Source: a virus. Taken from it: 64,000 bases of DNA. Position numbers and translations under genes: made by a program. The DNA lies in IMG/VR virus record IMGVR_UViG_3300037010_002464. One strand, 5' to 3'. Shown here in pieces: positions 4,687-64,000 of the stretch (its first letter is position 1; every line of letters begins with the position of its first letter). A model generated the notes under the pieces. The model searched no databases and had not been told where the DNA came from. It saw only the letters and a list, made by a program, of their open reading frames with translations.

Positions 4687-5003
4687 AGCTAGCTCAGCTG
4701 GTCGAGGACGTTAGCCGTGGGCGGCTGCTCAAGCTGCAGCAATATCTGCTTGACCATCTTCAAGGCAAGTTTGACATCAAGCTTGGAAAGCATGACAACG
4801 GGAAGCTATGCCTGTTCATCACCTACTTCACTATGGGCTTGGAGCCTAAGCTGGAGCTGATTCTCGAGCATGACGGTTGGCAGCTCTACGTGTATGAGAG
4901 CCGAGAGGATGAGTGGCGCGCCGTAACTGGCTCTAACAACAGCCAAGACGATGCTGACATTGCGGCCGAAGTACAGTCCTACACTTACGGCCCGCAAGGC
5001 TAG
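4683..5003 (+). CDS. MKLxxLLE-family protein
   Basis: N-terminus MKLAQLVEDVSRGRLLKLQQYLLD is shared with other small genes. Confidence 0.7.
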   Translation: MKLAQLVEDVSRGRLLKLQQYLLDHLQGKFDIKLGKHDNGKLCLFITYFTMGLEPKLELILEHDGWQLYVYESREDEWRAVTGSNNSQDDADIAAEVQSYTYGPQG

Positions 5004-5830
5004 CTCTTGTGCCCACCGTTAGTACTTATGATCATCCAGCCAACAGAATAGCCAACTTCTACTGGCTTTTTTGTTTGCTGTGTTTGAAGCAGTTTTGATA
5101 GACCAAGCTTATTAACCTGACAAAACTCTTTTAACCTCGTTACCGTGATAAATTCGCCGTCAGGTCGTTGTAACGTCCACTCTTTAAGAGCAATGACTTG
5201 CTTAGCACGAAACTCTCGTAGTTTTTGCTTAGTTTCATTAGACCGTTTTTGGCCCGTATTGGCTTTAGCAATTTGATCAATGAGCTCCTTCGGATGAGAA
5301 TATCCTGTAGCTAGCGCTGTCTTCTTTATTGCTGCTTTGTGTTCAGATGACAGAGTTTTACCAGTATGAGCTTTAGAAAGCAGCTCTCTGGTATGCATAG
5401 TCATTACTTTGCCTTTGTGAGCTAATGAAATTTTCTTCTTTGTCTCATCTGATTGCTTCCAGCCGCTAGAATGGGACTTATGTTTTAAACCTCTTCTTAG
5501 TAAAACACTCTGTTCTCTGATGGACTCAAACCATCGGCTCGATCTTGGTAAATATCTTTGATGTTTCAGCGTTGATTTACACATCATAGAAAGAGCAAAC
5601 GCCATCCTTCGCTTGTCATCGCCTTGAGTCATTTTAACAAGTAACACGTGACAAATAAAATGTTCTCGTGCTGTTAACTTGACAATATTTGACTTAAGAT
5701 CGGTGCCACCTAAGGCTTTAGGAAGAATATGATGTTTTTCAACGTATTGGGTCATTGATTCTCTATTCAAAGCTCGATCGACTAGCTTATTATAGAGTGC
5801 AGTATATTTGTTTGATAGAAAGTTATTCAT
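5000..5830 (-). mobile_element. Free-standing HNH homing endonuclease with NUMOD3 repeats
   Basis: EKHHILPKALGG...NIVKLTAREHFICH; repeats SDETKKKIS and SNETKQKL; visibly AT-rich; opposite strand to neighbours. Confidence 0.9.
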
Positions 5831-7355
5831 GCTACCTATTTACCTTCTTACGGCGGAGCCTAAAAACTTTGTCCCTGTTCAGCTAAAAGCTGAAGCTGAA
5901 AAATTAGGCTATGAATGCACTATCATCGACATTCGCCACACCTTCATCGTCGAGACCACGGGTAAGTCCAAGGTCATGTACAAGGTGGATGACGACAAGC
6001 TGGCCGAGCTGAAGCCGCCGTTTGCATGCATCCCGCGCCTTAACGAGCACCACATCATGTACAAGCTGAACGTGCTTAACCGGCTTGTGGCCGACGGCGC
6101 GTACATGGTCAACACGCCCGAAGCCATGGGTCTGTGTAATGACAAGCTAGGTTCGCAGGTCGCCTTGAACTCCGCCGGAATCCAGACACCGTACAGCACA
6201 GTCATCGGCTCGCTTGACATGCTCGACCTCACCTTGAAGCAGGTTGAGGAGGACGGTCAGCTGAAGTTCCCGATGATCATCAAGACGCTGCGCGGCACGC
6301 ACGGCATCGGCGTTATGAAGGTCGACTCGAAGTCCTCCCTCGTCTCAGTCGCTCAGGCGTTCCTCGCCAACAGCGGCTCCGAGGTGATGCTGCAGGAGTT
6401 CATCGAGCACAAGGAGTCCCTTCGCATCATCATGATCGGCGATGACCTGCTGGCGGCTAACCGTCGTGGTCAGCCGAAGGAGAAGGACGAGTTTCGCACC
6501 AACTCGCACTTGGGCTCCGAGACTGAGAAGTACGAGCCTAACGAGGAGGAGCTGGCGCTCGCTCGCAAGATCGTTGAGCTGTTTGGCGCCCGCTTCTGCG
6601 CGATCGACTATATCCAGCACAATGGCCAGCTAATCGTGCTCGAAGTCAACGGCTCGCCAGGCCTCGAAGCCATCCAGAAGAACTGGGAGGACAAGAACCT
6701 GCCTGAGGCTGTGATCAAGGGCTTGGTTAAGCTGTCAGGCAAGCATGATGCTCCGTTCGTCCCGGGCTCAGGCGAACCGGCGGTGGTCGACGGCATATAC
6801 GACGGTATTCCCGTCTCTGAGCCGAAGATCGCTCCTGAGATCGAACCAGCGGTTCCTAACGGCATTGAGGGTTCCCTCGACGTGCCGCACAATGACGCGC
6901 CGGTGCAAGTAACCCCGAATGTCAACGGTGACCAACCGCTTGGCGACACTGAGCAGCTGGTCATCGTCCGGCTTGCGGACCAAGGCATGCATGCACGAGT
7001 GGACACCGGTGCGGCGTTCTGTTCACTGCACGCCGAAGACGTGGGTGAAACTGGCGGCTGGGTCAAGTTCAAGCGCGACGGCATCACCTACCGCGTGTCG
7101 GTTGACCGTCATGTCAAGATCCGGAACGCTCACGGTAAGTCAACTCGGCCGTTGATCAAGCTTGACATCATCCTGCGGGGTGTCCGCTACAACCAGGTTG
7201 AGTTCTCAGTCACCTCTCGTGCTGACATGAAGTATGACGCTTTGATCGGTCGCAACCTGTTGAAGATCGCAGGCATCCCTGTGCTCGTACCGAATGACGA
7301 TAACCAACGGGCGGCCGACTTGCCACCGTCGGACATCGAGGTCGAAGAGGAATGA
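5829..7355 (+). CDS. rimK: RimK-family ATP-grasp ligase fused to a RimB-like retropepsin aspartyl protease
   Basis: CNDKL, PMIIKTLRGTHGIGV, LQEFI, FRTNSHLG, AIDYI, LEVNGSPG; C-terminal ARVDTGA...LIGRNLL. Likely start is the ATG at 5829. Confidence 0.88.
   Translation: MLPIYLLTAEPKNFVPVQLKAEAEKLGYECTIIDIRHTFIVETTGKSKVMYKVDDDKLAELKPPFACIPRLNEHHIMYKLNVLNRLVADGAYMVNTPEAMGLCNDKLGSQVALNSAGIQTPYSTVIGSLDMLDLTLKQVEEDGQLKFPMIIKTLRGTHGIGVMKVDSKSSLVSVAQAFLANSGSEVMLQEFIEHKESLRIIMIGDDLLAANRRGQPKEKDEFRTNSHLGSETEKYEPNEEELALARKIVELFGARFCAIDYIQHNGQLIVLEVNGSPGLEAIQKNWEDKNLPEAVIKGLVKLSGKHDAPFVPGSGEPAVVDGIYDGIPVSEPKIAPEIEPAVPNGIEGSLDVPHNDAPVQVTPNVNGDQPLGDTEQLVIVRLADQGMHARVDTGAAFCSLHAEDVGETGGWVKFKRDGITYRVSVDRHVKIRNAHGKSTRPLIKLDIILRGVRYNQVEFSVTSRADMKYDALIGRNLLKIAGIPVLVPNDDNQRAADLPPSDIEVEEE
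5836..5842 (-). promoter_or_regulatory. Late promoter core for the HNH gene, embedded in the rimK 5' codons
   Basis: CTATTTA on + (TAAATAG on -) 5 nt upstream of the HNH ATG. Confidence 0.55.
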
Positions 7356-7827
7356 AGCTGCAAGCCTTGCTTGAAGACGGTAGCCTGCGTAAGCGAGTCG
7401 CTCAAGTTTCAGCAGCTAGTGCTCGAGCACGTGCATGACGCCGATGTCAAGCTAAAGGCGAGCGCGAGGTGGAGGGACGAGTACATCACCCTCACTATTA
7501 AGCATGCTTTCCTTAACTGCAAGGTATTCATCCAGCCGACTGAAGTGGGATGGAGCACAACGGCACAGAGTCGTACATCGGCGACGGTAGCGACTTCGCA
7601 CGGCTTTGCGTGACGTGCGTGACGTGACTGAGACCAGCGTGTTTCTAAACGATCGGGTCCTCACGCTTGAAGTTGTCTACAACGGCGAGCGTGACGAGAA
7701 GTCGCTCCATATGAAGTGGAATGAAGATACCCAGTGCTTTGTCGATGAAGACGGCGACGAGCTGTCTGACGTAGCCGATGTCATCAAGCACATCGAAGGC
7801 AAGATCAGCCGGCGAGGTCGCGGATGA
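7352..7827 (+). pseudogene. Frameshifted MKLxxLLE-family gene
   Basis: ATG at 7352 gives MKLQALLEDGSLRK; SLKFQQLVLEH follows in another frame; C-terminal part lies in ORF 7606-7827. Confidence 0.6.
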
Positions 7828-8075
7828 AGCTAGGACACCTGCTCGAAGCGCCAAAGCCTGCCCATGACATTCGTGTAGATTCGCTGAAGCTTCAACAGCT
7901 AATCATCGACAACGAGTACGGCGCTGACCTTGACGCTAAGATGAATAGCATGGGTGGGATGCATGTCACCCTGCCCAACCTTGTTGACGAGCTCATTTGG
8001 CATAACGCTCACTCATTTCATGGCCAGGTCTGGTCATCATGCTACAAACAGCCGGATCTTAGGCTTAGCGCCTGA
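7824..8075 (+). CDS. MKLxxLLE-family protein (3' end possibly degraded)
   Basis: MKLGHLLEAPKPAHDIRVDSLKLQQLIID. Confidence 0.6.
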   Translation: MKLGHLLEAPKPAHDIRVDSLKLQQLIIDNEYGADLDAKMNSMGGMHVTLPNLVDELIWHNAHSFHGQVWSSCYKQPDLRLSA

Positions 8076-8183
8076 AGCCGCGATGCAGCTTTTCTTGCCC
8101 GAGGCATTTGGGTTGAAGCTTAAGCAGCAATCTGCACAGCTACTACGGCTCGAAGCATGATATCTACCTTCGGCCTCAACGAG

Positions 8184-8330
8184 CTAACAAGCATTTCCCA
8201 GTGTCAGTCGTAATCGAGTGGGATGGCATAATGCTAGCAGCGAAAGCAACACCGTCTTCGTGTTCAATTCAGGGTCTTCGATCAGCAGCTGTTGAAGCTT
8301 AAGAGCGCTTGTCCGAATCTCTCGAGCCGT
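8184..8330 (-). pseudogene. Remnant of an MKLxxLLE-family gene lacking its start
   Basis: REIRTSALKLQQLLIEDPELNTK, in a frame overlapping the 3' end of the upstream gene. Confidence 0.45.
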
Positions 8331-8820
8331 AGCTGAGGTAGTCGACGTAGGTGTGCTGGAACTTGACGCGGTTGAAGACGTCATTGCCTACTTTTCGCTT
8401 GATGTCAACGATATCAGTCAGCTCGAGAGCCGTGTCTGAGCCGACGAGCTTGACCTGCAGCGACTTGGTCGCGTTACCTCGTGCGTGCAAGCGAAGGTCC
8501 TTAACCTCAGCCTCAACCCGTTCTTCGTCATAGTCGGTCTCGACCAAGGTGTAGACAACGGTGTCGCCTGGCTGTGGCAGGTTAAAGGAGCGCTTCAGCG
8601 GGCCCAGCGCTTCGAGGAGCTTCGAGCTCTCGTCATACTGGACCTTGACGCCGTTGATTTCAACCACGTCTGCAAAGAAAGCGGCACGAGAGCCGTCAGG
8701 CAACGGCTCCTTGACATACACCGCGGGCTGGGTCTTGAGGCTCGTGTAGGAGCTGACCACGTGCACGCCGTCTTGGCCGAGCAGCTTGATCTTGTCATTC
8801 TTCACGAGTGCTACAAGCAT
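8299..8820 (-). CDS. Hypothetical protein
   Basis: 173 aa, typical codon usage, coupled to the upstream gene. Confidence 0.7.
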   Translation of the reverse strand: MLVALVKNDKIKLLGQDGVHVVSSYTSLKTQPAVYVKEPLPDGSRAAFFADVVEINGVKVQYDESSKLLEALGPLKRSFNLPQPGDTVVYTLVETDYDEERVEAEVKDLRLHARGNATKSLQVKLVGSDTALELTDIVDIKRKVGNDVFNRVKFQHTYVDYLSYGSRDSDKRS

Positions 8821-9017
8821 TACTCAGCTCCGGCGGTGTCGTCGACAACAGGCGTGGCCGTATCGATGGTCTCAGGCCCTGCCGTGCCCATGATGCGGGC
8901 TTTCATCTTGGACTGTAGCACGTTGCTGATGATCGATTGTGCGTTGCCTTCAGGGTCACCCTTGATGGTAGCGTTGATGAAGTTGCGCAGGGCGGCTTTG
9001 GTTTCTTCTGGAGTCAT
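8820..9017 (-). CDS. Small late protein with weak resemblance to T4 gp67-type prohead core proteins
   Basis: MTPEETKAALRNFINATIKGD...KMKARI plus acidic tail; late promoter upstream. Confidence 0.5.
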   Translation of the reverse strand: MTPEETKAALRNFINATIKGDPEGNAQSIISNVLQSKMKARIMGTAGPETIDTATPVVDDTAGAE

Positions 9018-9044
9018 ATGTTCCCAACGGTTAGGTTGTGCCAC

Positions 9045-9051
9045 CTATTTA
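9045..9051 (-). promoter_or_regulatory. Late promoter core TAAATAG
   Basis: CTATTTA on +, intergenic. Confidence 0.65.
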
Positions 9052-9056
9052 CCTCC

Positions 9057-9509
9057 TCAAGGAAGCGTCTGCTTCACCACGGCTTGCAACTCACCGGCAA
9101 GCTGCCGTAGGTGCTCAGCATTGAACCGCTCCTGGCCTCCAGTAGGCCGCGGGTTGCTGGCCAAGAAGAGCAGTCCTTCGATGATCGTCCGATTGCAGTC
9201 GTTGACCCACTGGACACGGGAGCTTTCATGAACGCCATGCCGACATGCTTCGAGCGCCGAGTTCCAGCCTCGAACAAAGCCTTCGCGCTCCTCGTTCGGC
9301 GGGACAAAGATTGTCCGCGCAGGCGATGACACCTTGGCCGGCCACTTGACAGCCAGCACCAAGCCGCGCTTTGCTGCGAGGCAATCGAGCCTTGCGTCCT
9401 CGAGCTGGCGAGTCAGCAGGCGCACCTGAGCCTCAAGCTCTTCGATCTTGTGCTTTGCTGCAATGGGTGACTCGCTATGAGGTGGGCCTTCAATGGGTAG
9501 CACGAACAT
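9057..9509 (-). CDS. Hypothetical phage protein
   Basis: 150 aa, AGGAGG RBS, GWN motif common in small phage proteins. Confidence 0.65.
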   Translation of the reverse strand: MFVLPIEGPPHSESPIAAKHKIEELEAQVRLLTRQLEDARLDCLAAKRGLVLAVKWPAKVSSPARTIFVPPNEEREGFVRGWNSALEACRHGVHESSRVQWVNDCNRTIIEGLLFLASNPRPTGGQERFNAEHLRQLAGELQAVVKQTLP

Positions 9510-9519
9510 GTGACCTCCT

Positions 9520-10032
9520 TTAACGGCAGTCGGCAGGCTCTGCCTTGACCGTGTACAGAATCAGCTGGCGGTTGACCGCCAAAGCCAAGCTGGTGGAGCT
9601 AGTGACCTTGACGATGACATCGCTGATCTCATTCCAGTCCCCGCCCGCCCGCCCGGCGCCGATCATTGGGAACAGCAGCGGCAGGCTGCCTGCGGAGATG
9701 CCGCTGCAGTACTCGTGCATGCTCATCATATACAGCGTCTTGCTGAAGCATTCAGCCAAGCCCTGCATGTCGAGCGGGTTCGGGCCGCCCAGCGTTTGGG
9801 TGACGGCGTTGACGATGAACAGCTCTGGGTTGTGCTGATAGAACGAGCAGGTGCCGATCTTCAAACCGAGCAGCTGCTCGGTTTGCTTGTAGACGGCGTA
9901 GGCGCCAGGGTAGCGGTTACGCACGCCGGCGGCGACGCCTGACCCCATGACACCCTTGTCATTGCAGCCGTGGATGATGAAGCCGCGAGGTGCGGATAGC
10001 AGGTCATCCTCGACGGTGAAGAATTTTTTCAT
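9520..10032 (-). CDS. Macrodomain protein (ADP-ribose/Appr-1-p processing)
   Basis: IIHGCNDKGVMGSGVA, IVNAVTQ, FPMIGAGRAGGDW. Confidence 0.9.
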   Translation of the reverse strand: MKKFFTVEDDLLSAPRGFIIHGCNDKGVMGSGVAAGVRNRYPGAYAVYKQTEQLLGLKIGTCSFYQHNPELFIVNAVTQTLGGPNPLDMQGLAECFSKTLYMMSMHEYCSGISAGSLPLLFPMIGAGRAGGDWNEISDVIVKVTSSTSLALAVNRQLILYTVKAEPADCR

Positions 10033-10754
10033 GATGTCCTAACTGAACAGAACAGGTTGAGCAGCTCGCGCTGCCAGTCGGCGGTGGGAACTTTGACGTG
10101 CTCATACACAAGCGCTTGCAAGGCTTCACCGTTGCAGAATGGGTCACGATGAGCGCGTTGTGCAAAGCGAAGGAGCTCATCCTTCAAGGCTTCATTGCCG
10201 CTTTGCCGAGCCTCGCCCTTCTTGCGACTGCGCACAACGCCTGGGATGAGCTCAGCCGCAGCGAGCGCCACAGCTACAGGGTAGCGAGGCGGTTCGGTGT
10301 GCATGTAGAAGTCCAGGCTTTCGCGTGCCACGGTCAAGTGAGCGTCATAGCTGAAGATCGGCTTGACTTGCAGCAGCTTGCGTAAGTTAGTCAGCTCAGG
10401 CGACACCACCTTCATGTACCAGAAGGCGGGATTCTTGCCGGACCATGGTGTGCGTTGCAGGGTAGTTGGGTCGAGCTCGACCGTGATTTGGCTGTTGACA
10501 ACCTGCTTGCACCGCTCTTCGTCAAAGCGGTCACCGTTGCCGCGGACCACCGTGATGTGGGTGCCGAACATTGGCTCAAGCAGGTTGCACCATGGGCCAT
10601 GCTCAAGCTCTATGAGCTTGGCATAGTAGCGAGCCAGCTCACGGTGCTTCTTCCCTGGGAGGTCCAGGATCAAGGTCTTGAGCTTGCCGGTCTTGCGGAA
10701 GTCCGCGCCGCGGTCAGGCTCGAAGACGAGGTTGCCGGTAACTTTCATGTTCAT
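10029..10754 (-). CDS. 2H phosphoesterase-family protein with C-terminal extension
   Basis: Two HxT motifs: THITVVR and AHLTVAR. Confidence 0.65.
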   Translation of the reverse strand: MNMKVTGNLVFEPDRGADFRKTGKLKTLILDLPGKKHRELARYYAKLIELEHGPWCNLLEPMFGTHITVVRGNGDRFDEERCKQVVNSQITVELDPTTLQRTPWSGKNPAFWYMKVVSPELTNLRKLLQVKPIFSYDAHLTVARESLDFYMHTEPPRYPVAVALAAAELIPGVVRSRKKGEARQSGNEALKDELLRFAQRAHRDPFCNGEALQALVYEHVKVPTADWQRELLNLFCSVRTS

Positions 10755-10780
10755 AAGTATTCAACTTGCCGATAGGTATA

Positions 10781-10809
10781 ATAGTACACCCTATCGAGCA
10801 AGTTGTAAA
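10781..10809 (-). promoter_or_regulatory. Sigma70-type early promoter TTTACA-N17-TACTAT inside an inverted repeat (10763-10804)
   Basis: Read directly; arms AACTTGC.CGATAGG / CCTATCG.GCAAGTT. Confidence 0.7.
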
Positions 10810-10812
10810 CAC

Positions 10813-11640
10813 TTAGAGTGGCCTCAATTTCGGCTCACCACCGTTGAAGAACTCGGCCACGTTGTCTAGCTGGTGGATGCTGAGCCATTGAGTATCAACG
10901 CGGACCTCATGCCTGGTCACAGGCTCGCCGGCGGCCGGACGCTTGGCCAAAGGGATGCGCTGTCGAACCTCCTCGTCCAGCGGCTTGAGGAAGGAGACAT
11001 GCCGCAGGTAGGCGCCGTTAGTGTAGGTAGGTGGCAGGCTCTCCCAGTCGAAGCCTCGCTCCTTGAGCAGCTCACGACGGTCTTGCATGCTGATGCCATG
11101 CAGCTCACGCTCAGGCGCAACGACACGGGCTGCGGTGCTCACAGCGTTCTTGACCGCGTCCTTCTCACGCCAGGTAAAAGCGTCCAACACGTCCAGCTCC
11201 GTGGGCACCTCCCACATGCGGCAGTCAAAGGCCGGCGGCTCGTTGAGCTCCAAGTAGCGAGTCGGGTCAGTCCGCATCAGGGTATCGAGGAATCGGCCAG
11301 TGAAGGTCGCCGACAGCAGGCTCACGTTCTTCTGCTCACGCATGTTGAACTCGAGCTTGTCACGATGCCAGCAGAAGGTGGCTTCATCAGACTGCACATA
11401 GGCCAAGCGCGGCCGCATCTTTGTGAAGGTACCGGCCGTAGCCTGAATCATGGCTTCGAGGATCCAGGAGTCGACGGGCTTCTGCATGCCCTTTGTGAAG
11501 GTGCTGAATGTACGGCCGTCAACGCGCGCGACAACCCACTCCCAGTCTTGGACAAGCGAGACTCCCGGACGAAAGAAGGAGCGCTCATTAGCCAAGCCCT
11601 CGTAGGCTTTGACCCGGTCACCGAGTGCGTCTGTTTTCAT
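10813..11640 (-). CDS. thg1: tRNA-His guanylyltransferase (Thg1 family)
   Basis: VARVDGRTFSTFT, AYVQSDE, PAFDCR, WREKDAVKN. Confidence 0.93.
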   Translation of the reverse strand: MKTDALGDRVKAYEGLANERSFFRPGVSLVQDWEWVVARVDGRTFSTFTKGMQKPVDSWILEAMIQATAGTFTKMRPRLAYVQSDEATFCWHRDKLEFNMREQKNVSLLSATFTGRFLDTLMRTDPTRYLELNEPPAFDCRMWEVPTELDVLDAFTWREKDAVKNAVSTAARVVAPERELHGISMQDRRELLKERGFDWESLPPTYTNGAYLRHVSFLKPLDEEVRQRIPLAKRPAAGEPVTRHEVRVDTQWLSIHQLDNVAEFFNGGEPKLRPL

Positions 11641-56792: not shown

Positions 56793-57005
56793 TGCACTTT
56801 GACTCCAAGACCAAGTCGCCCAGCATGGCGGCGTAGCGCTCGGCTTGTTCGCTACCTCCGACAAGGTCTATGTCAGCTGTGCGCCTGAGTTCTGGCGCTA
56901 CGGTAATGTCGAAATCGTCTGCCAACGGCATGGCATCCCGTTGCACCCAACCCTGCAAGAGCTGCTCGGCGCAACGCTGCCGCTCGTCCAAGGAGCCGGA
57001 TTGTC

Positions 57006-57210: not shown

Positions 57211-57240
57211 TTTACACCAAGCCGCTTTAGCGGTTACAAT
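57211..57240 (+). promoter_or_regulatory. Sigma70-type promoter TTTACA-N18-TACAAT with spacer hairpin
   Basis: CCGC-TTTA-GCGG in the spacer. Confidence 0.7.
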
Positions 57241-57271
57241 CCTCATAGCTTAACTAACTGTGAGGATTGCG

Positions 57272-58518
57272 ATGCCAAAGATCATCGTGATTGGCGGTGG
57301 GACATTCTCCCACGTACGAAACCACCTGAGCCTCTGCGCCTCTGCTTTCGGGGAGACGGCGCGTACGCTAGCCGAAACCCTCAGGGCCGAGGTCAGGAAG
57401 AGGGGCCAACGCTTCTACGGCGTTGACCTTTACCTGACCAAGATGGCGGACCCGACCTCGAAGCTGGTCACCAATGAGGATGTCGACAAGCTGCTTGACA
57501 AGCTCATCGCCACCCTGATGTCCGCGCCATCATCTTCAACCCAGCGCTCGTGGACTTTGACGGCCATGTCGATGAACGCCGTGTCGCCTCAGGCAAGCAG
57601 AACGGCTTCGCACGGATGCCGGGGAGCAAGTGATGACGCTTCGGCCGGCGCCTAAGCTCATCGGCAAGATCCGCAAGACGCGCAAGGACATCTTCGTCGT
57701 CGGCTTCAAGACCACGACGGACGCCAATCCAGGTGAGCAGTATGCGGCAGACCTCAGGCTGCTGAAGACCAACTCGCTCAACCTGGTCCTGGCCAACGAT
57801 ACGATCACGAGGCGCAACGTCATCATCGCGCCTGAAGAGACCCAATACACACCGACCACCGACCGCACCTACGCTCTCAATACGCTGGTCGAGATCATGC
57901 TGTCTCGCATGACCAACACCTTCACCCGCAGCACGGTCGTGCCTGGCGATGCGGTACCCTGGAACTCTGAGCTGGTGCCTGTCAACCTCCGCGAGGTCGT
58001 GGACTTCTGCAAGACCGTGCTCGGCAAGACCGCCGGCCACTTCGCCGTCAAGCTCAGCGACACCGAGGTGCTGACTAGCATCCGCAAGTCCAACTTTAAC
58101 GAGCTGGCCAAGGTCGGCATGGTCAAGATCGTGAGCTCTGGCCATGACTCCGTCGTGGCACATGGCTTCAAGCCCTCAGTCGGTGGCCAGTCGCAGCGCA
58201 TCGTCTTCAGCAAGCACCAAGACGTGGACTGCATCGTCCACTTCCACTGCCCCGCTAAGCGGACCTACGACATTGCCACTCGGTCCCAGTGGCAAAACGA
58301 GTGCGGCTCGCATCAATGCGGCCAGAACACCGCCGACGGGCTGCAGGTCGTTGACCTCGGCGACGGTGACCGGCTGAAGGTCGTCTACCTCGAGGACCAC
58401 GGCCCCCAACATCGTCTTCGACCGCCATACGCCTGCTTGGAAGGTCAAGCAGTTCATCACCGACAACTTCGAGCTCGCCAGCAAGACCGGTGGCTTGATT
58501 CCTGAAAGCGTGCAGTGA
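57272..58518 (+). pseudogene. CoaB-like (phosphopantothenate-cysteine ligase fold) + class II aldolase-like fusion with three frameshifts
   Basis: IGGGT; IIFNPALVDF (alternate frame); LRPAPKLI...FVVGFK...LVLAND; GHFAVK, KPSVG, IVHFHC, DHGPNIV; shifts near 57510, 57600 and 58405. Confidence 0.72.
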
Positions 58519-58787
58519 TGCTCAAGCTTGCCCAACTTCGCCCTGGCCTCATCCTCGAGAAGGATGACGCGCCTTACATCATCAACACCCTGACGCTGGA
58601 TGACGGTGACACCCTTTGGAACGTGTACCGCTACGACCAGGTTGACCCGGAGCCGTTCTTCACAGAGTCGGCTGACTGGTACATCGTCGTCGCCCGTGAC
58701 ACCCACAAGGGCTTCCTGTCCAAGGACTTGCTGCTCGTAGCGCTCAATGTCAACAGCTTCAACCTTGACCATGCCGAGATTGACTGA
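58518..58787 (+). CDS. Hypothetical protein
   Basis: TGATG coupling, typical codon usage. Confidence 0.6.
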   Translation: MLKLAQLRPGLILEKDDAPYIINTLTLDDGDTLWNVYRYDQVDPEPFFTESADWYIVVARDTHKGFLSKDLLLVALNVNSFNLDHAEID

Positions 58788-59109
58788 CTTCGGCAAGAGC
58801 GACGTCGGCGTCTTCCGCTACTCGCTCGTAGCGGTAGCTGACTTCAGCCGCATCGCCGAGCTCAAGGCCAGGGTGACGCTAACAACCGGCGAGGTGCTGC
58901 CGCTCTCAGGGTCCCACGCCCTGGAAGCCGCCTACATCCTGCACCCGTCGGTGGTTGAAGGCCAACACCTTCGCTTCGCTCGCCACGCATGGGCCTTGCA
59001 TAACCTGCTCGGCCACCCGGTCATGCAGCTGCTCGCATTCTGCAAGCTATACAAGCAAGCGATGTGGGTCCATGAGGTCACCGTGCCTAAGTGCAAGAGC
59101 CCAGAGTGA
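58771..59109 (+). CDS. Hypothetical phage protein (HNLLGHP motif)
   Basis: WALHNLLGHPVMQLL...WVHEVTVP, His-rich motif. Confidence 0.6.
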   Translation: MPRLTDFGKSDVGVFRYSLVAVADFSRIAELKARVTLTTGEVLPLSGSHALEAAYILHPSVVEGQHLRFARHAWALHNLLGHPVMQLLAFCKLYKQAMWVHEVTVPKCKSPE

Positions 59110-59211
59110 CGCCGACGATGGCCGATGCCGAGGTGACGGCCCAGCTGCTGCTGAAGATCACCGAGATGTCACCGAGGTGTCGCATTGCTCTTCAGTGGCT
59201 GTCGTTGAGAT

Positions 59212-59418
59212 GTGAACCTCATTGATCTGCCGCCCGCTTTCCGATGCTGTACCGATTTTGACAACAGTAAAGCTCAGCTCAGCGTCAATGTCATCAACAT
59301 CGCTCGGCTAGAAAAGCTTGAAGCTGAGGTGCTTGTGCTCAAGCGCATGAAGAACCAAGCCGTCATACACAAAGTTCCAAAAATCAGTGTACAACCAACG
59401 AAGGTTGGGGTACAATAA
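59212..59418 (+). CDS. Hypothetical protein
   Basis: 68 aa GTG-start ORF before a promoter. Confidence 0.35.
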   Translation: MNLIDLPPAFRCCTDFDNSKAQLSVNVINIARLEKLEAEVLVLKRMKNQAVIHKVPKISVQPTKVGVQ

Positions 59419-59421
59419 ATA
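59388..59421 (+). promoter_or_regulatory. Early promoter TGTACA-N17-TACAAT with spacer hairpin, followed directly by a TAAATA core
   Basis: CCAAC-GAAG-GTTGG in the spacer; upstream of the NAD genes. Confidence 0.65.
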
Positions 59422-59467
59422 TGTCTGACGCACAAAGAGCGCGTCAACCCACCAACGGAGAGTTCCA

Positions 59468-60655
59468 ATGGCATCAGTAATCCCCACCAAGAAGCATGAG
59501 GTTAGCGCCGTGTTTAGGGACGTCATCGTCTACAACGGTCGCTTCAATCCCTTCCACCTCGGGCACGCCCATGTCCTGCAAGAAGCGCTCAGGCGCGGCA
59601 GGTTGGTCATCGTGCTTGTCGGTTCAAGTGGCCTATCCCGCTCGCTGAAGAACCCCTTCACGTTCGCCGAGCGGAAGCAGATGATCGTCCAGTGGTATGA
59701 ACGCAACATGCCGCTGGATGACAGCTGGGGCACGCTCTCCGTTCGGCCGTCGCGCGACTACCCGTACAACGACATGCTGTGGCAGCGCAGCGTCCAAAGC
59801 ATCGTCAAGACCGCAATCGAAAGCCGGATGTGGAAGGAGCAAGCAGCTCCTAACATCAACCTGATCGGCTCTGATCGTGACGAGAGCACCTGGTACCTGC
59901 ACGCCTTCCCGCAGTGGAAGACGATCTTTGTCGAGCCCTACCGGCAGAACGGCGTGCTCAATGTGAGCGCCACCGACGTGCGTTCGTGGCTGTTCGGCGG
60001 CGAGGGGACTCACATCCCGGATGTCGTGCCTGACACAACACTTCTCAACATGGAGCGCTTCAAGAGCACGCCCGAGTTTGCATCGCTGGTCGAGACCTAC
60101 AAACACGTCTGCGCCTACAAGGAGCGCGCCAAAGCCTACCCGTATCCGCCGATCTACCAGACGGTGGACGGCGTCATCGTGCAATCCGGTCACATCCTCA
60201 CGGTGGTGCGTGGCCACGAGCCTGGCAAGGGTCTTTGGGCGCTTCCTGGCGGCTTTGTGAACGCCAATGAGCGCCTCCGTAGCGCATGCATTCGCGAAGT
60301 GATCGAAGAGACCAAGATCAAGCTGACCGAAGGCAAGGACCCAGTCAAGGTCAAGAAGATCACGACTGACATCCTGCGCGGCTCGATCCGTGCGGAGCAG
60401 GTCTTCGACAAGCCGGACCGTTCGGACCGTGGCCGCACGATCACGCACGCCTACTTCTTCCGGCTCGATGACATGAAGCCGTTGCCCCAAGTCAAGGGCA
60501 TGAAGCAGGGCAACACCGATCCTGAGTGCGACGTGATCGAATGCTTCTGGCTGCCGATCAGCGAGGCGCTCGAGCGCATGGACATGTGGTTCGAGGACCA
60601 CCACGCAATTGTTGAATGGGCCATGGGCCACATCGACCGCGAGACGTTGACGTGA
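59468..60655 (+). CDS. nadM: Bifunctional NMN adenylyltransferase / Nudix ADP-ribose pyrophosphatase (NadM-Nudix, NatV-like)
   Basis: GRFNPFHLGH, KNPFTFAER, SATDVR; Nudix box PGGFV...CIREVIEET; FEDH. Confidence 0.95.
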   Translation: MASVIPTKKHEVSAVFRDVIVYNGRFNPFHLGHAHVLQEALRRGRLVIVLVGSSGLSRSLKNPFTFAERKQMIVQWYERNMPLDDSWGTLSVRPSRDYPYNDMLWQRSVQSIVKTAIESRMWKEQAAPNINLIGSDRDESTWYLHAFPQWKTIFVEPYRQNGVLNVSATDVRSWLFGGEGTHIPDVVPDTTLLNMERFKSTPEFASLVETYKHVCAYKERAKAYPYPPIYQTVDGVIVQSGHILTVVRGHEPGKGLWALPGGFVNANERLRSACIREVIEETKIKLTEGKDPVKVKKITTDILRGSIRAEQVFDKPDRSDRGRTITHAYFFRLDDMKPLPQVKGMKQGNTDPECDVIECFWLPISEALERMDMWFEDHHAIVEWAMGHIDRETLT

Positions 60656-60831
60656 TCTACTACTGTCCAGTTCATCGGCTGTAGCTCTGACGACTATGTT
60701 TCTTCGGCATCCTCATCATCCTCTTCTTTGCCGTGGACATCCCAATGCTGCTCATTGGCAAGATTCACGAGCTGATTCAAAAGTATCGTGCCACCCAAGC
60801 GGCAGCACCGTTCTTCCTGATTGGAGCAATC

Positions 60832-62283
60832 ATGACAACCCTGCAATTCAACCCCATCCTGGACACCGACAGCTACAAGCTGTGCCACGCCTTCGCCTAC
60901 CCTGAGTATGTGAGGGGCATGTTCTCCTACATCGAAGCCCGCACCGGCGGTCGCGACATCATGGTCCCGTTCGGCCTGCAAGTCTGGCTGCGCGAGTACC
61001 TGTCGGTGCAGATCACGCTCGAGATGATCGACGAGGCTGAAGCCTTCGCCGCCGCCCACGGTGAGCCTTTCAGCCGTGACGGTTGGCTCAAGGTGGTTAA
61101 CAAGTACAACGGCTACCTGCCCCTGACGATCCGCGCCGTCCCTGAGGGCACGCCGGTCCGCAGCGGCAACGCCTTGGTCACGGTCAAGTGCGTCGACCCT
61201 GACCTCTACTGGCTGACCTCCTACATCGAGACCTCGCTGCTCCGGGCCGTCTGGTACCCGACCACCATCGCCTCCTTGGACTACGACACCAAGCTCGAGA
61301 TCAAGCGCTTCTACGAGGTCGCTGGCGCCGACCTCGGCTTCCTGCCCTTCTCGCTGCACGACTTCGGCGCACGCGGCGTCACCAGCCGCGGCCAAGCCTG
61401 CATCGGCGGCGCCGCCCACTTGGTCAACTTCATGGGCTCCGACACCATCGATGGCGTTCGGACCGCGAACTTCTACTACGACCACTCGATGGCTGGCTTC
61501 TCGGTGCGCGCCACGGAGCACAGCGTTGCCTGCTCTTTCGGCCTGTCTGTCGAAGATGAGATCGCCTACATCGACCACGCCCTGACCAAGTTTGAAGGCC
61601 AAGGCAACATCATTTCCCTGGTCGGCGACACGAAGGACATCTACCGCTTCGCTGAACAGCTGTGCACCGTCTTCAAGGACCGCATCATCGACCTGCACAC
61701 CCGCCTGGGCATGAAGCTGGTCTGCCGCCCCGACAGCGGCGACGCCCTCGAGGTGATCCCGCGTGTGATGCGCCTCTTCTGCTCGGCCTTCCCGACCACG
61801 AAGACCAGCAAGGGCTACGTCAAGATGTATCCAGGCATCGGCATCCTGCAGGGCGACGGTGTTGACCGCATGACCCTGAAGACCCTGCTGGGCAACCTGA
61901 TGGCGATGAACTTCTCGCCCGACAACATCGTCTTCGGCTCTGGCGGCGGCCTGCTGCAGAAGGTCAACCGTGATACCTTCAAGTTCGCGATGAAGGCTTC
62001 GGCGATCCTTGTCAAGGACACGAATACGAACAACCCGATTGATTTTCCGAAGGACCTCTGGGTCGGCATCGTCAAGGACCCGATCACGGACCCGGGCAAG
62101 AAGTCCAAGGAAGGCGTCTTGACGCTGGCTCGATCGAAGATGACCGGTGAGTACTCGACGGTACGCATCGATCAAGGCCCGCTGAGCGACGAGTTCGAGG
62201 ACGTGATGGTGACGGTCTACGAGTACGGCGTGCTGAGCAATCAAACCACACTGGACGAAGTCCGCGCTCGCTGCGCTGTATGA
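60832..62283 (+). CDS. nadV: Nicotinamide phosphoribosyltransferase (NAMPT/NadV family)
   Basis: TDSYKLCH, LHDFGARG, ATEHS, RPDSGD, QGDG, FGSGGGLLQKVNRDT, KKSK; start MTTLQF after a GGAG RBS. Confidence 0.95.
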   Translation: MTTLQFNPILDTDSYKLCHAFAYPEYVRGMFSYIEARTGGRDIMVPFGLQVWLREYLSVQITLEMIDEAEAFAAAHGEPFSRDGWLKVVNKYNGYLPLTIRAVPEGTPVRSGNALVTVKCVDPDLYWLTSYIETSLLRAVWYPTTIASLDYDTKLEIKRFYEVAGADLGFLPFSLHDFGARGVTSRGQACIGGAAHLVNFMGSDTIDGVRTANFYYDHSMAGFSVRATEHSVACSFGLSVEDEIAYIDHALTKFEGQGNIISLVGDTKDIYRFAEQLCTVFKDRIIDLHTRLGMKLVCRPDSGDALEVIPRVMRLFCSAFPTTKTSKGYVKMYPGIGILQGDGVDRMTLKTLLGNLMAMNFSPDNIVFGSGGGLLQKVNRDTFKFAMKASAILVKDTNTNNPIDFPKDLWVGIVKDPITDPGKKSKEGVLTLARSKMTGEYSTVRIDQGPLSDEFEDVMVTVYEYGVLSNQTTLDEVRARCAV

Positions 62284-62469
62284 GCTAGGGAGCTCACATG
62301 ACCCATGTGGGTCCCGTGATAGCGCATAGCCTAGCGCCGTAGCCCTATCAAGCCGAGGGCAGAACGGCGAGCCATCAAGCCCGGCGACACTGCTGAGGTC
62401 CAGAACATCCTGCGCACGATAGTCAAGGAAATCTTCGATGAGCGGTCATAAGGATGATTCAATCAAATA

Positions 62470-63090
62470 ATGCAACCCAATCCCATCCTCATTGACCAAG
62501 ACGGCGTGCTCGCAGACTTCGTGCTAGGGCTCTACCAGGAGCTCGAGCGTCGCCTCGCACCAGCTGACTTCGCTCACATGCCTGACATGAACACGGCAGA
62601 GACCTTCTACGTTGAGGACTGCATCAACAGCGGTGATCCTAAGTATGACATCTGGCTGAAGAACCAGGTCATCCATGTCGTGGATACTTGGGAGGGCATG
62701 TTCCGTGACATCCCACCGATTCCCGGCGCTGTTGAGCACGTCCAACTGTTGCAGGACCTAGCAGCCAAGCATAACATCGGCGTCCGCATCTGCACAGCGC
62801 CGCACGTCGAGCACAAGACGTGCCACTCCGACAAAGCGGCCTGGGCGGCCAAGCACTTGGGAGACACCTGGGCCAAGCAGATGATCATGTCGCACGACAA
62901 GACCGTCGTCCGCGGCTTGGTGCTGCTCGATGACAAGCCCAAGGTGACCGGCTCGCTAGAGCCCATGTGGGAGCACGTGGTCTTCGGCGCACCCTGCAAC
63001 CGACACACCGATCGAATCCGGGTGGATGGCTGGTCAGAAGCCAGCGTCATGACGATCCTCAACCGAGCTCTGGAGCGTAACCGTGAATAA
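62470..63090 (+). CDS. 5'(3')-deoxyribonucleotidase (HAD, NT5C family)
   Basis: IDQDGVLADF, ICTAP, DKAAW, DKT, LLDDKP. Confidence 0.9.
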   Translation: MQPNPILIDQDGVLADFVLGLYQELERRLAPADFAHMPDMNTAETFYVEDCINSGDPKYDIWLKNQVIHVVDTWEGMFRDIPPIPGAVEHVQLLQDLAAKHNIGVRICTAPHVEHKTCHSDKAAWAAKHLGDTWAKQMIMSHDKTVVRGLVLLDDKPKVTGSLEPMWEHVVFGAPCNRHTDRIRVDGWSEASVMTILNRALERNRE

Positions 63091-63242
63091 GGGCCTTGCC
63101 TCCCTCGGGCTATGCGTTGTCGCATGCTACCTGCTCTACCTTGACCACTGCCGCGGCCGATCCACGAGGTCGTGTTATTTCCCAAGAACCACAAGAAGCG
63201 CTGCACCCTCTACTACGAGACGCCAGCTGAAAGGGACTTGCC

Positions 63243-64000
63243 ATGAAGATCGTTGTCACCGGCGGCGCCGGGTCAGATAAATCCACGCTCATCAAGAGCC
63301 TCCGAGAGGCGCTAGGTTCGACCTTTGCTTACGCCAACGTAGACGACGCTGTTTGGGCGAACCCGCAGATCCTCTTACAGCCGAGCGAGCTTGAGACCTT
63401 CCGAGGCATGGTCAACGGCAAGACCATGGAGCAGGTGCGTGAGCAGGTGTTCACCGACGAGCGCTTCAAGTTCAAGCTCGAGGAGGTCTTCAAGGGCGCC
63501 GTTCGGTACCAGATCGAAGAGGCCATGGAGCACCTGGACTTGGTGCTCGAGTCCCGCTCTTGTATGAGCGCTTCGACCGCGAGCTCTATGATCGGTTTGA
63601 CGCGGTCGTCGTGGTCGAAGCAGGCTATGATAACAACAACGAGCGGAAGCAGCGACTCAAGGCTCGTGGCTGGCAGCCACGATCAAGGGTGTGTTCAAGT
63701 CACAGATGACTGACAGCGCTCGGCATGACTTCATCAGCGTCATCAAGAACGGCCTTAAGGTTTTCAGAGTCAACACCGGCAAGAGCGATGTATCTGCACC
63801 GCATGATCGGCTCCCAGCCAACATTCGCTTCATCGCCAACTGGCTAAAGGGTGAGAGCTACAAGCGGCGCTTACCTACAGCCAAAGTGGGCGTTGTCGCC
63901 GGCTCGTTTGACCCGGTCACCTCAAGGGTTGGGAGCTCATGCTTAAGGCTTACACCAGCGATCCAGTCTGGCGCTACATCCTTGAAACCTACGGGAAGGA
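63243..64000 (+). pseudogene. coaE: Dephospho-CoA kinase (CoaE)-like gene fused to a CoaD-like adenylyltransferase; frameshifted and apparently internally deleted; runs off the window
   Basis: IVVTGGAGSDKST (P-loop with G>D), VF.D...KLE, VLE/PLLYE, VVVVEA, RLKARG, FKSQM; then KVGVVAGSFDPVT with the following HxGH histidines missing. Confidence 0.72.

Follow-up and report, generated by a model that had tools for sequence, protein, structure and literature searches.

A partly decayed cofactor gene block in a large phage: an intact NAD+ salvage pair beside apparent CoaE-CoaD and CoaB-aldolase pseudogenes

The stretch of viral DNA analysed here (the window; 64,000 nucleotides of IMG/VR record IMGVR_UViG_3300037010_002464) comes from a 133,943-bp IMG/VR virus contig, of which it is the reverse strand between bases 15364 and 79363; CheckV estimates the completeness of the contig at about 37%, so that its source is a large phage. 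Between 57.2 and 64.0 kb the window carries, co-oriented on the plus strand, a CoaB-like gene, an NMN adenylyltransferase fused to a Nudix domain (NMNAT-Nudix), a nicotinamide phosphoribosyltransferase (NAMPT), an NT5C-family gene and a CoaE-CoaD fusion (CoaED). This region is most probably a partly decayed copy of an early-gene block that is conserved in large T4-like phages, in which the NAD+ salvage pair known as NARP2 is intact and two flanking accessory genes, which resemble genes of coenzyme A (CoA) synthesis, are dead. The reading was extended 15 kb beyond the window end on the same contig, and the region was compared with that of a close syntenic relative, L061, a 132,757-bp ENA metagenome contig found via a member (P0043) of a CoaED protein cluster. 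The gene order of L061 is that of the window, and its CoaB-aldolase fusion (426 residues) and CoaED fusion (392 residues) are both intact. Megablast against the GenBank phage collection found no close relatives of the window phage; blastn gave only distant matches to NAMPT genes (Caulobacter, Stenotrophomonas and other phages).

The core of the block is the NAD+ salvage pair. Its first gene (59468-60655, plus strand) encodes an intact, bifunctional NMN adenylyltransferase/Nudix protein of the NadM/NatV type, in which Pfam recognises CTP_transf_like (2.2e-14) and NUDIX (2e-13) domains. The score against NF003786 (319 bits) is under the equivalog cutoff of 397, with the domain architecture complete, and the protein is 89% identical in amino acid sequence to that of L061, with no frame breaks. 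The second gene, 177 nucleotides downstream, encodes an intact NadV-type NAMPT (60832-62283, plus strand). The Pfam domains NAMPT_N and NAPRTase (PF18127 and PF04095) lie in the open frame 60733-62283, whose true start is at 60832; the protein passes the NF006629 cutoff (476.5 bits against 405) and is 93% identical to its L061 counterpart across residues 1-472. Judged by sequence, the two are presumably a functional NARP2-type pair, in which NAMPT would convert nicotinamide and phosphoribosyl pyrophosphate to nicotinamide mononucleotide (NMN) and NMNAT-Nudix would convert NMN to NAD+. NARP2, consisting of Nampt and Nmnat/NatV in KVP40, has been shown experimentally to rebuild NAD+ and defeats the Thoeris and DSR2 defences; about 1.1% of phages carry it, its two enzymes co-occur in 94%, and the term 'coenzyme A' has no occurrence in the text of that paper (Osterman et al. 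2024, bioRxiv 10.1101/2024.02.11.579819). Among 30 NadV loci that we sampled from IMG/VR, NMNAT adjoins NAMPT in at least 26, in agreement with the published co-occurrence. The window resembles NARP2 in holding both enzymes, adjacent and co-oriented, with a NadV-type NAMPT and an NMNAT with fused Nudix domain; it differs in that here, and at nine other loci, a CoaE-CoaD fusion follows the pair, the window copy being dead.

That fusion, which would combine dephospho-CoA kinase (CoaE) and phosphopantetheine adenylyltransferase (CoaD), appears in the window as a pseudogene at 63243-64000 on the plus strand, its tail running to 64016 past the window end. It matches the 392-residue L061 protein (E = 2.1e-70) in four pieces: residues 1-106 at 63243-63551 (frame 0), 108-149 at 63554-63685 (frame 2), 145-230 at 63667-63921 (frame 1) and 361-392 at 63921-64016 (frame 0), the last being an out-of-frame tail of 32 codons. 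The smaller frameshifts are a 1-nucleotide deletion near 63552 and a 4-nucleotide deletion near 63678. The Walker A motif reads GGAGSDKS where L061 has GGAGSGKS, a two-base Gly-to-Asp change that departs from the pattern GxxxxGK[ST]. The largest lesion, a 391-nucleotide deletion directly after GSFDPVT, removes residues 231-360. With them go most of the CoaD domain, its ISSS motif and the GH of T/HxGH, so that only the first strand and GSFDPVT are left; the missing segment was found nowhere on the rest of the contig. Pfam scores the CoaE piece (63243-63713) at 16.6 bits, below the cutoff of 27, and has no match in the CoaD remnant (63676-63927). An earlier note, based on the letters of the window and on frameshifts repaired by hand, had described a CoaE-like kinase continuing into the CoaD signature GVVAGSFDPVT. 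This is the remnant of a true CoaE-CoaD, since intact homologues pass the CoaD model TIGR01510; however, although the signature is present, the CoaD part itself is almost wholly deleted, which goes beyond a frameshift. The small deletions, the Walker A substitution and the 391-nucleotide deletion would together have cost the window phage its CoaED capacity.

Two other accounts of the CoaD lesion were considered and ruled out. Truncation by insertion of an HNH-like gene (64226-64519) does not fit L061, which has the same gene in the same place, at 90% identity, and an intact CoaED. A 'PGH' in frame 0 after GSFDPVT is not the T/HxGH motif displaced by a 10-nucleotide slippage, because the stretch that holds it is the C-terminal tail (residues 361-392) and the lesion is the 391-nucleotide deletion.

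At the other end of the block, at 57272-58515 on the plus strand, lies what appears to be a second pseudogene, of a fusion between a CoaB-fold domain and a class II aldolase-like domain whose intact relatives have 404-456 residues. It survives as four in-frame pieces, at 57272-57508 (frame 2), 57514-57600 (frame 1), 57591-58409 (frame 0) and 58402-58515 (frame 1), with a linked E-value of 8.5e-155 against the intact L061 protein, and it aligns to all intact IMG/VR homologues in these same four pieces. Three frameshifts separate them: one nucleotide is deleted near 57510 and four near 57600, and the C-run at 58402-58406 holds one C too many. Two further deletions, of 21 and 18 nucleotides, keep the frame, and the shorter of them takes out a conserved IERGAY stretch. 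Pfam still recognises Aldolase_II in the 291-residue frame at 57630-58505.

The damage is concentrated in certain genes. About 2.6 kb, made up of the CoaB-aldolase gene, CoaED and the homologues of the L061 genes g11166 and g11913, contains eight indels that disrupt the frame, and about 5.7 kb of adjoining genes contains none, an absence that would have a probability of about 0.004 if the rate were uniform. Most of the lesions are deletions (1, 4, 19 and 391 nucleotides), some of them striking invariant motifs. The broken g11166 homologue (window-equivalent 64006-64229, L004 minus strand) has the 19-nucleotide deletion, and the g11913 homologue (64519-64810, same strand) a frameshift; between the two lies the HNH-like gene, which is intact. 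Intact relative to L061 are also NDT1 (86% identity), NMNAT, NAMPT, NT5C, g12209, g13902 and the AAA_33 kinase gene. Because L061 is intact in both fusion genes, and the breaks are clustered, mostly multi-base and in some cases at invariant motifs, we interpret them, from this sequence comparison, as real decay of selected accessory genes, sequencing noise being very unlikely. The earlier statement that the CoA genes look decayed while the NAD genes are intact is thus borne out, with frameshifts and deletions on one side and an unbroken NMNAT-Nudix and NAMPT on the other. A further remnant lies a short way upstream of the CoaB-like pseudogene: of NDT2, which is the second gene here to resemble nucleoside 2-deoxyribosyltransferases, only the part corresponding to residues 99-152 of the 159-residue L061 protein survives (56833-56994, 59% identity). 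The mini-gp23 gene of L061 is nearly gone from the window phage.

Intact relatives establish the CoaE-CoaD fusion as a genuine family of phage proteins. A scan of IMG/VR with the kinase piece recovered an intact 363-residue protein, encoded at L005:8001-9092 on a 345-kb phage contig, with a NAMPT gene 2.7 kb upstream; it scores 89.3 bits for Pfam CoaE and 53 bits for CTP_transf_like. Both this protein (139.1 bits) and that of L061 (111.5 bits) pass the CoaD equivalog model TIGR01510 (cutoff 103.3), whereas the CoaE model TIGR00152 (cutoff 65.55) is passed by L005 (88.6) and failed by L061 (42.7). A search of 5.8 billion proteins gave about 44 clusters in which PF01121 is followed by PF01467, nearly all metagenomic and on contigs of up to 360 kb; beyond these, scores fall steeply to ordinary bacterial CoaE. 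The motifs GSFDPxTxGH and [IV]SS[ST] are kept in all 12 intact CoaED proteins examined, which are only 28-61% identical to one another. A tblastn search of the GenBank phages with the GSFDP piece gave no match. The intact fusions thus resemble CoaD and CoaE in holding both catalytic domains, with Walker A, GSFDPxTxGH and ISSS, and resemble the eukaryotic CoA synthase COASY in joining the last two steps in one polypeptide; COASY has the opposite domain order to the CoaE-then-CoaD of the phages. The family differs from all three in being encoded by large phages, and its window copy is a pseudogene.

Linkage of CoaED to NAD+ salvage was counted at 13 CoaED loci, the window included. At 10 of them (the window, L061, L063, L060, L037, L038, L065, L066, L067 and L068) the NMNAT-Nudix and NAMPT genes are no more than 3.5 kb away, and the usual order is NMNAT, NAMPT, CoaED; at the other three (L059, L062 and L064) neither gene occurs within 10 kb. 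Since the intact proteins are so divergent, this linkage spans a deep divergence. In the reverse direction, the 30 IMG/VR loci sampled for NadV contained no CoaED. Much of the linkage could nevertheless be synteny passed down in a single broad group of T4-like phages, since the downstream genes, for an AAA_33 kinase and topoisomerase II, are recurrent as well.

Several of these loci carry other genes of related metabolism. In L067 a row at 4812-11116 consists of NAD kinase, AAA_28 kinase, NMNAT-Nudix, NAMPT and CoaED, and in L068 (5571-11071) a NADAR-domain protein stands between NAMPT and CoaED. In L063 a PanD-like gene (11145-11519; aspartate 1-decarboxylase of the pantothenate pathway, precomputed PF02261) overlaps the CoaE-CoaD stop, and its Gly-Ser self-cleavage site is apparently Asn-Ser.

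The other flanking family, that of the CoaB-like gene, was examined on its own. Using the frame 57576-58502, tblastn against GenBank phages found an intact 442-residue homologue in a 595-kb uncultured phage (LR756511.1) and stand-alone homologues of the N-terminal domain in Caulobacter Bertelyvirus phages. The IMG/VR scan gave 20 fusion loci, on contigs of up to 415 kb, of which 17 encode uninterrupted full-length proteins (404-456 residues). The earlier note had called the window protein a CoaB fold, and the intact homologues confirm it. An AlphaFold (AF2) model of one of them, L050 (pLDDT 91.4, pTM 0.88), has only CoaB structures as top Foldseek matches (2gk4, 6thc and 1u7z; Cab2, M. smegmatis CoaB and E. 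coli CoaB are among them), with probability 1.0 and a TM-score of about 0.7, normalised by target length, over the N-terminal 230 residues; its C-terminal domain is matched by the class II aldolase 2irp. The family profile matches the S. pneumoniae CoaB structure 2gk4 with E = 1.8e-11.

At the level of motifs, the fusion family keeps the GGGT, ALCDF, VGFKTT and LANDV motifs of CoaB (phosphopantothenate-cysteine ligase, PPCS; PF04127; 2gk4, 1u7z, 6thc), but the CoaB loop E.ID.VR.I.N.S.G is replaced by HVRNHLALAAPAFG and its conserved Asn is lost. The family consensus at the substrate loop is HVRxHLALxAPAxG, and in the HMMER alignment to 2gk4 the Asn of ITNHS stands opposite an Ala of that consensus. 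We take this Asn to be N210 of E. coli CoaB, which is required for the half-reaction of cysteine ligation. Scores against the CoaB models are far below cutoff (for the L061 fusion, 35 bits for TIGR00521 against 219.7 and 21.8 for TIGR02114 against 217.2); Pfam DFP has no match in the L003 fusion and a marginal one in the stand-alone CcrSC gp055c (23.5 bits, cutoff 22). The fusion also differs from CoaB in carrying a class II aldolase-like metal domain in place of a fused CoaC flavoprotein domain; a CoaC partner did not turn up on the window contig, which covers about 37% of the genome and on which PF02441 was not searched for. The C-terminal domain resembles class II aldolase/adducin proteins (PF00596; 2irp, AraD 1k0w) in scoring 23.7-30.2 bits for Aldolase_II (cutoff 22.2) and in keeping the HxH and HG metal-ligand motifs; unlike them, it has PSVGGQSQ for the catalytic PSSE stretch and an additional ECGSHxCGxNTS element. 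In the ESM Atlas the fusion falls in clusters that are 77-97% viral. Because of the low TIGR00521 score, the replaced Asn loop, the aldolase-like partner domain and the mostly viral clusters, the sequences point to a separate, mostly viral enzyme family and not to a canonical CoaB.

Nor does this family travel with the others. At its 20 IMG/VR loci, the 10 kb around the fusion contain neither NadV nor NMNAT nor CoaED. The check suggested in the earlier note, synteny of intact homologues with nadV, is positive for CoaED and negative for the CoaB-like fusion. Three carriers of the fusion, G004 (near-complete, 98%), G006 and G008 (complete), lack CoaED and NadV. The fusion is absent from the complete genomes G001 (CoaED and NARP2) and G003 (NARP2, with no CoaED detected) and from the syntenic relative L063. 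With a profile made from a two-sequence alignment, A1, CoaED was detected neither in G003 nor in four genomes that carry the CoaB-aldolase fusion, although the profile is narrow and these absences are correspondingly soft. Since none of the other loci and genomes checked links the two, the position of the CoaB-aldolase gene beside NARP2 is particular to the lineage of the window and L061.

A conserved partner for the fusion was also looked for and not found: all-against-all clustering of neighbours at 21 loci, together with Pfam on 133 neighbouring open reading frames, gave no recurrent one, the commonest families being DNMK, Nuc_deoxyri_tr2 and PTH2 with three occurrences each. In the window two small conserved open reading frames follow the pseudogene on the plus strand, at 58518-58787 and 58747/58777-59109, with 49% and 79% identity to g3940 and g4521 of L061 and without a match in a Pfam scan. 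The second (58777-59109, about 110 residues) has homologues of 33-37% identity in L050, L051 and L056, in each case 1.2-1.5 kb downstream of the fusion gene, and this protein may be a candidate partner of the fusion. Nuc_deoxyri_tr2-like genes of several subfamilies stand beside the fusion in about one-third of loci (L003:7153-7605, L040:9128-9673, L050:3382-3921, L056:11652-12155 and L061:1887-2366), and occur near the CoaED/NARP2 blocks of L059, L060, L065 and L068 as well.

The chemistry of CoaD and CoaE suggests what the intact CoaED of relatives would do: with ATP, 4'-phosphopantetheine would be converted to dephospho-CoA and then to CoA. Because the phages carry only these last two steps, the enzyme would draw on the phosphopantetheine pool of the host and turn it into CoA during infection. 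The simplest purpose would be auxiliary and metabolic, a boost to a second adenylate cofactor alongside NAD+; a role in counter-defence is also conceivable, because the neighbouring pathway is a proven counter-defence system.

The earlier note had gone further, proposing that the CoaB-like, CoaD and CoaE proteins form a CoA-reconstitution route parallel to NARP2 and directed against a defence that depletes or modifies CoA, functional in relatives and fading here. We think this unlikely, even though CoaED is physically linked to a proven counter-defence pathway at most of its loci and across deep divergence, and the block elsewhere gains further NAD and pantothenate genes, namely the NAD kinase of L067, the NADAR protein of L068 and the PanD-like gene of L063. 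A three-enzyme route is not indicated, because the CoaB-like fusion is non-canonical, lacks the substrate loop of CoaB, scores far short of the cutoffs for that enzyme and does not travel with CoaED or NadV, either at the 20 IMG/VR loci or in the three near-complete or complete genomes; G001 and G003 have the NAD+ pathway, and G001 CoaED as well, without it. The linkage of CoaED itself may reflect only an inherited block of cofactor and nucleotide metabolism, the loss of the genes from the window phage implies that they are dispensable in its niche, and our literature search on phage CoaD/CoaE and CoA-depleting defence found nothing relevant. To our knowledge, NAD+ is the only depleted cofactor that a phage has been proven to rebuild. 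A form of the idea confined to CoaED, in which the fusion behind NARP2 would be a second cofactor-reconstitution module that rebuilds CoA from 4'-phosphopantetheine after the action of a hypothetical CoA-cleaving or CoA-depleting effector, one that the hosts of the window phage would lack, is equally doubtful.

It is quite improbable that CoaED makes no CoA and instead acts, as adenylyltransferase and ribose-3'-kinase, on a substrate related to NAD or ADP-ribose. This would explain its tight and conserved adjacency to NMNAT-Nudix and NAMPT, and its company with NADAR and NAD kinase, and the CoaE half is divergent in the lineage of the window and L061. Against this, the CoaD halves score above the equivalog cutoff and have their phosphopantetheine adenylyltransferase motifs intact, the CoaE half of L005 passes TIGR00152, and models of NadD, NadR and NMNAT score far lower on the same domain.

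Our preferred reading, a partly decayed block with dead accessory genes around an intact NARP2 pair, has points that weigh against it. The CoaED of L061 (L061:10001-11179) sits on a very long branch, and because its CoaE half is also below the TIGR00152 cutoff, the intact enzyme of this lineage may be drifting or may have changed specificity, constraint having been relaxed or altered before the decay seen in the window. A search of public metagenome contigs for the junction of the 391-nucleotide deletion gave no second copy. Single-base changes, one of them in a run of five Cs, could conceivably be assembly errors, and intact second copies of the genes might lie in the part of the genome outside the contig. 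That all the frameshifts are such errors, and both genes functional in the real phage, is nevertheless very improbable: one break is indeed the extra C in that homopolymer, this is a metagenome assembly for which no independent copy was found, and the CoaB-aldolase fusion on another IMG/VR contig is frameshifted too, but the breaks gather in four accessory genes and spare 5.7 kb of neighbours, they include deletions of 4, 19 and 391 nucleotides, an 18-nucleotide in-frame loss of a motif and a two-base change in Walker A, and other remnants (NDT2, mini-gp23) lie nearby. The interrupted homologue just mentioned (L040:10001-11297, on a 390-kb contig) switches frame after 69 codons, which makes at least two unrelated assemblies with a broken member of the CoaB-aldolase family.

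Two further features complete the region. Between NAMPT and the kinase lies an intact gene, overlooked in the earlier note, for an NT5C-family 5'(3')-deoxyribonucleotidase-like protein (62470-63090, plus strand; Pfam NT5C 8.3e-20; 83% identity to L061). Sigma-70-like consensus matches stand upstream of the CoaB-like gene (57211-57240, plus strand, TTTACA-18-TACAAT) and of NMNAT-Nudix (59388-59416, plus strand); these are the early promoters of the earlier note. Three were counted in the region, where shuffled sequences average 1.6, and the difference is not significant.

This analysis adds a matched pair of intact and decayed copies and a count of the linkage between CoaED and NARP2, and it detaches the CoaB-like fusion from this linkage. 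It sets the CoaB-fold/aldolase fusion, a large and mostly viral orphan family, apart from CoA synthesis proper, and it makes the window a natural loss-of-function case to be compared with a close intact relative. A fused pair of CoA-finishing enzymes beside NARP2 raises two testable prospects: that phages replenish both CoA and NAD+ during infection, or that bacteria may have an as yet unseen defence directed at CoA.

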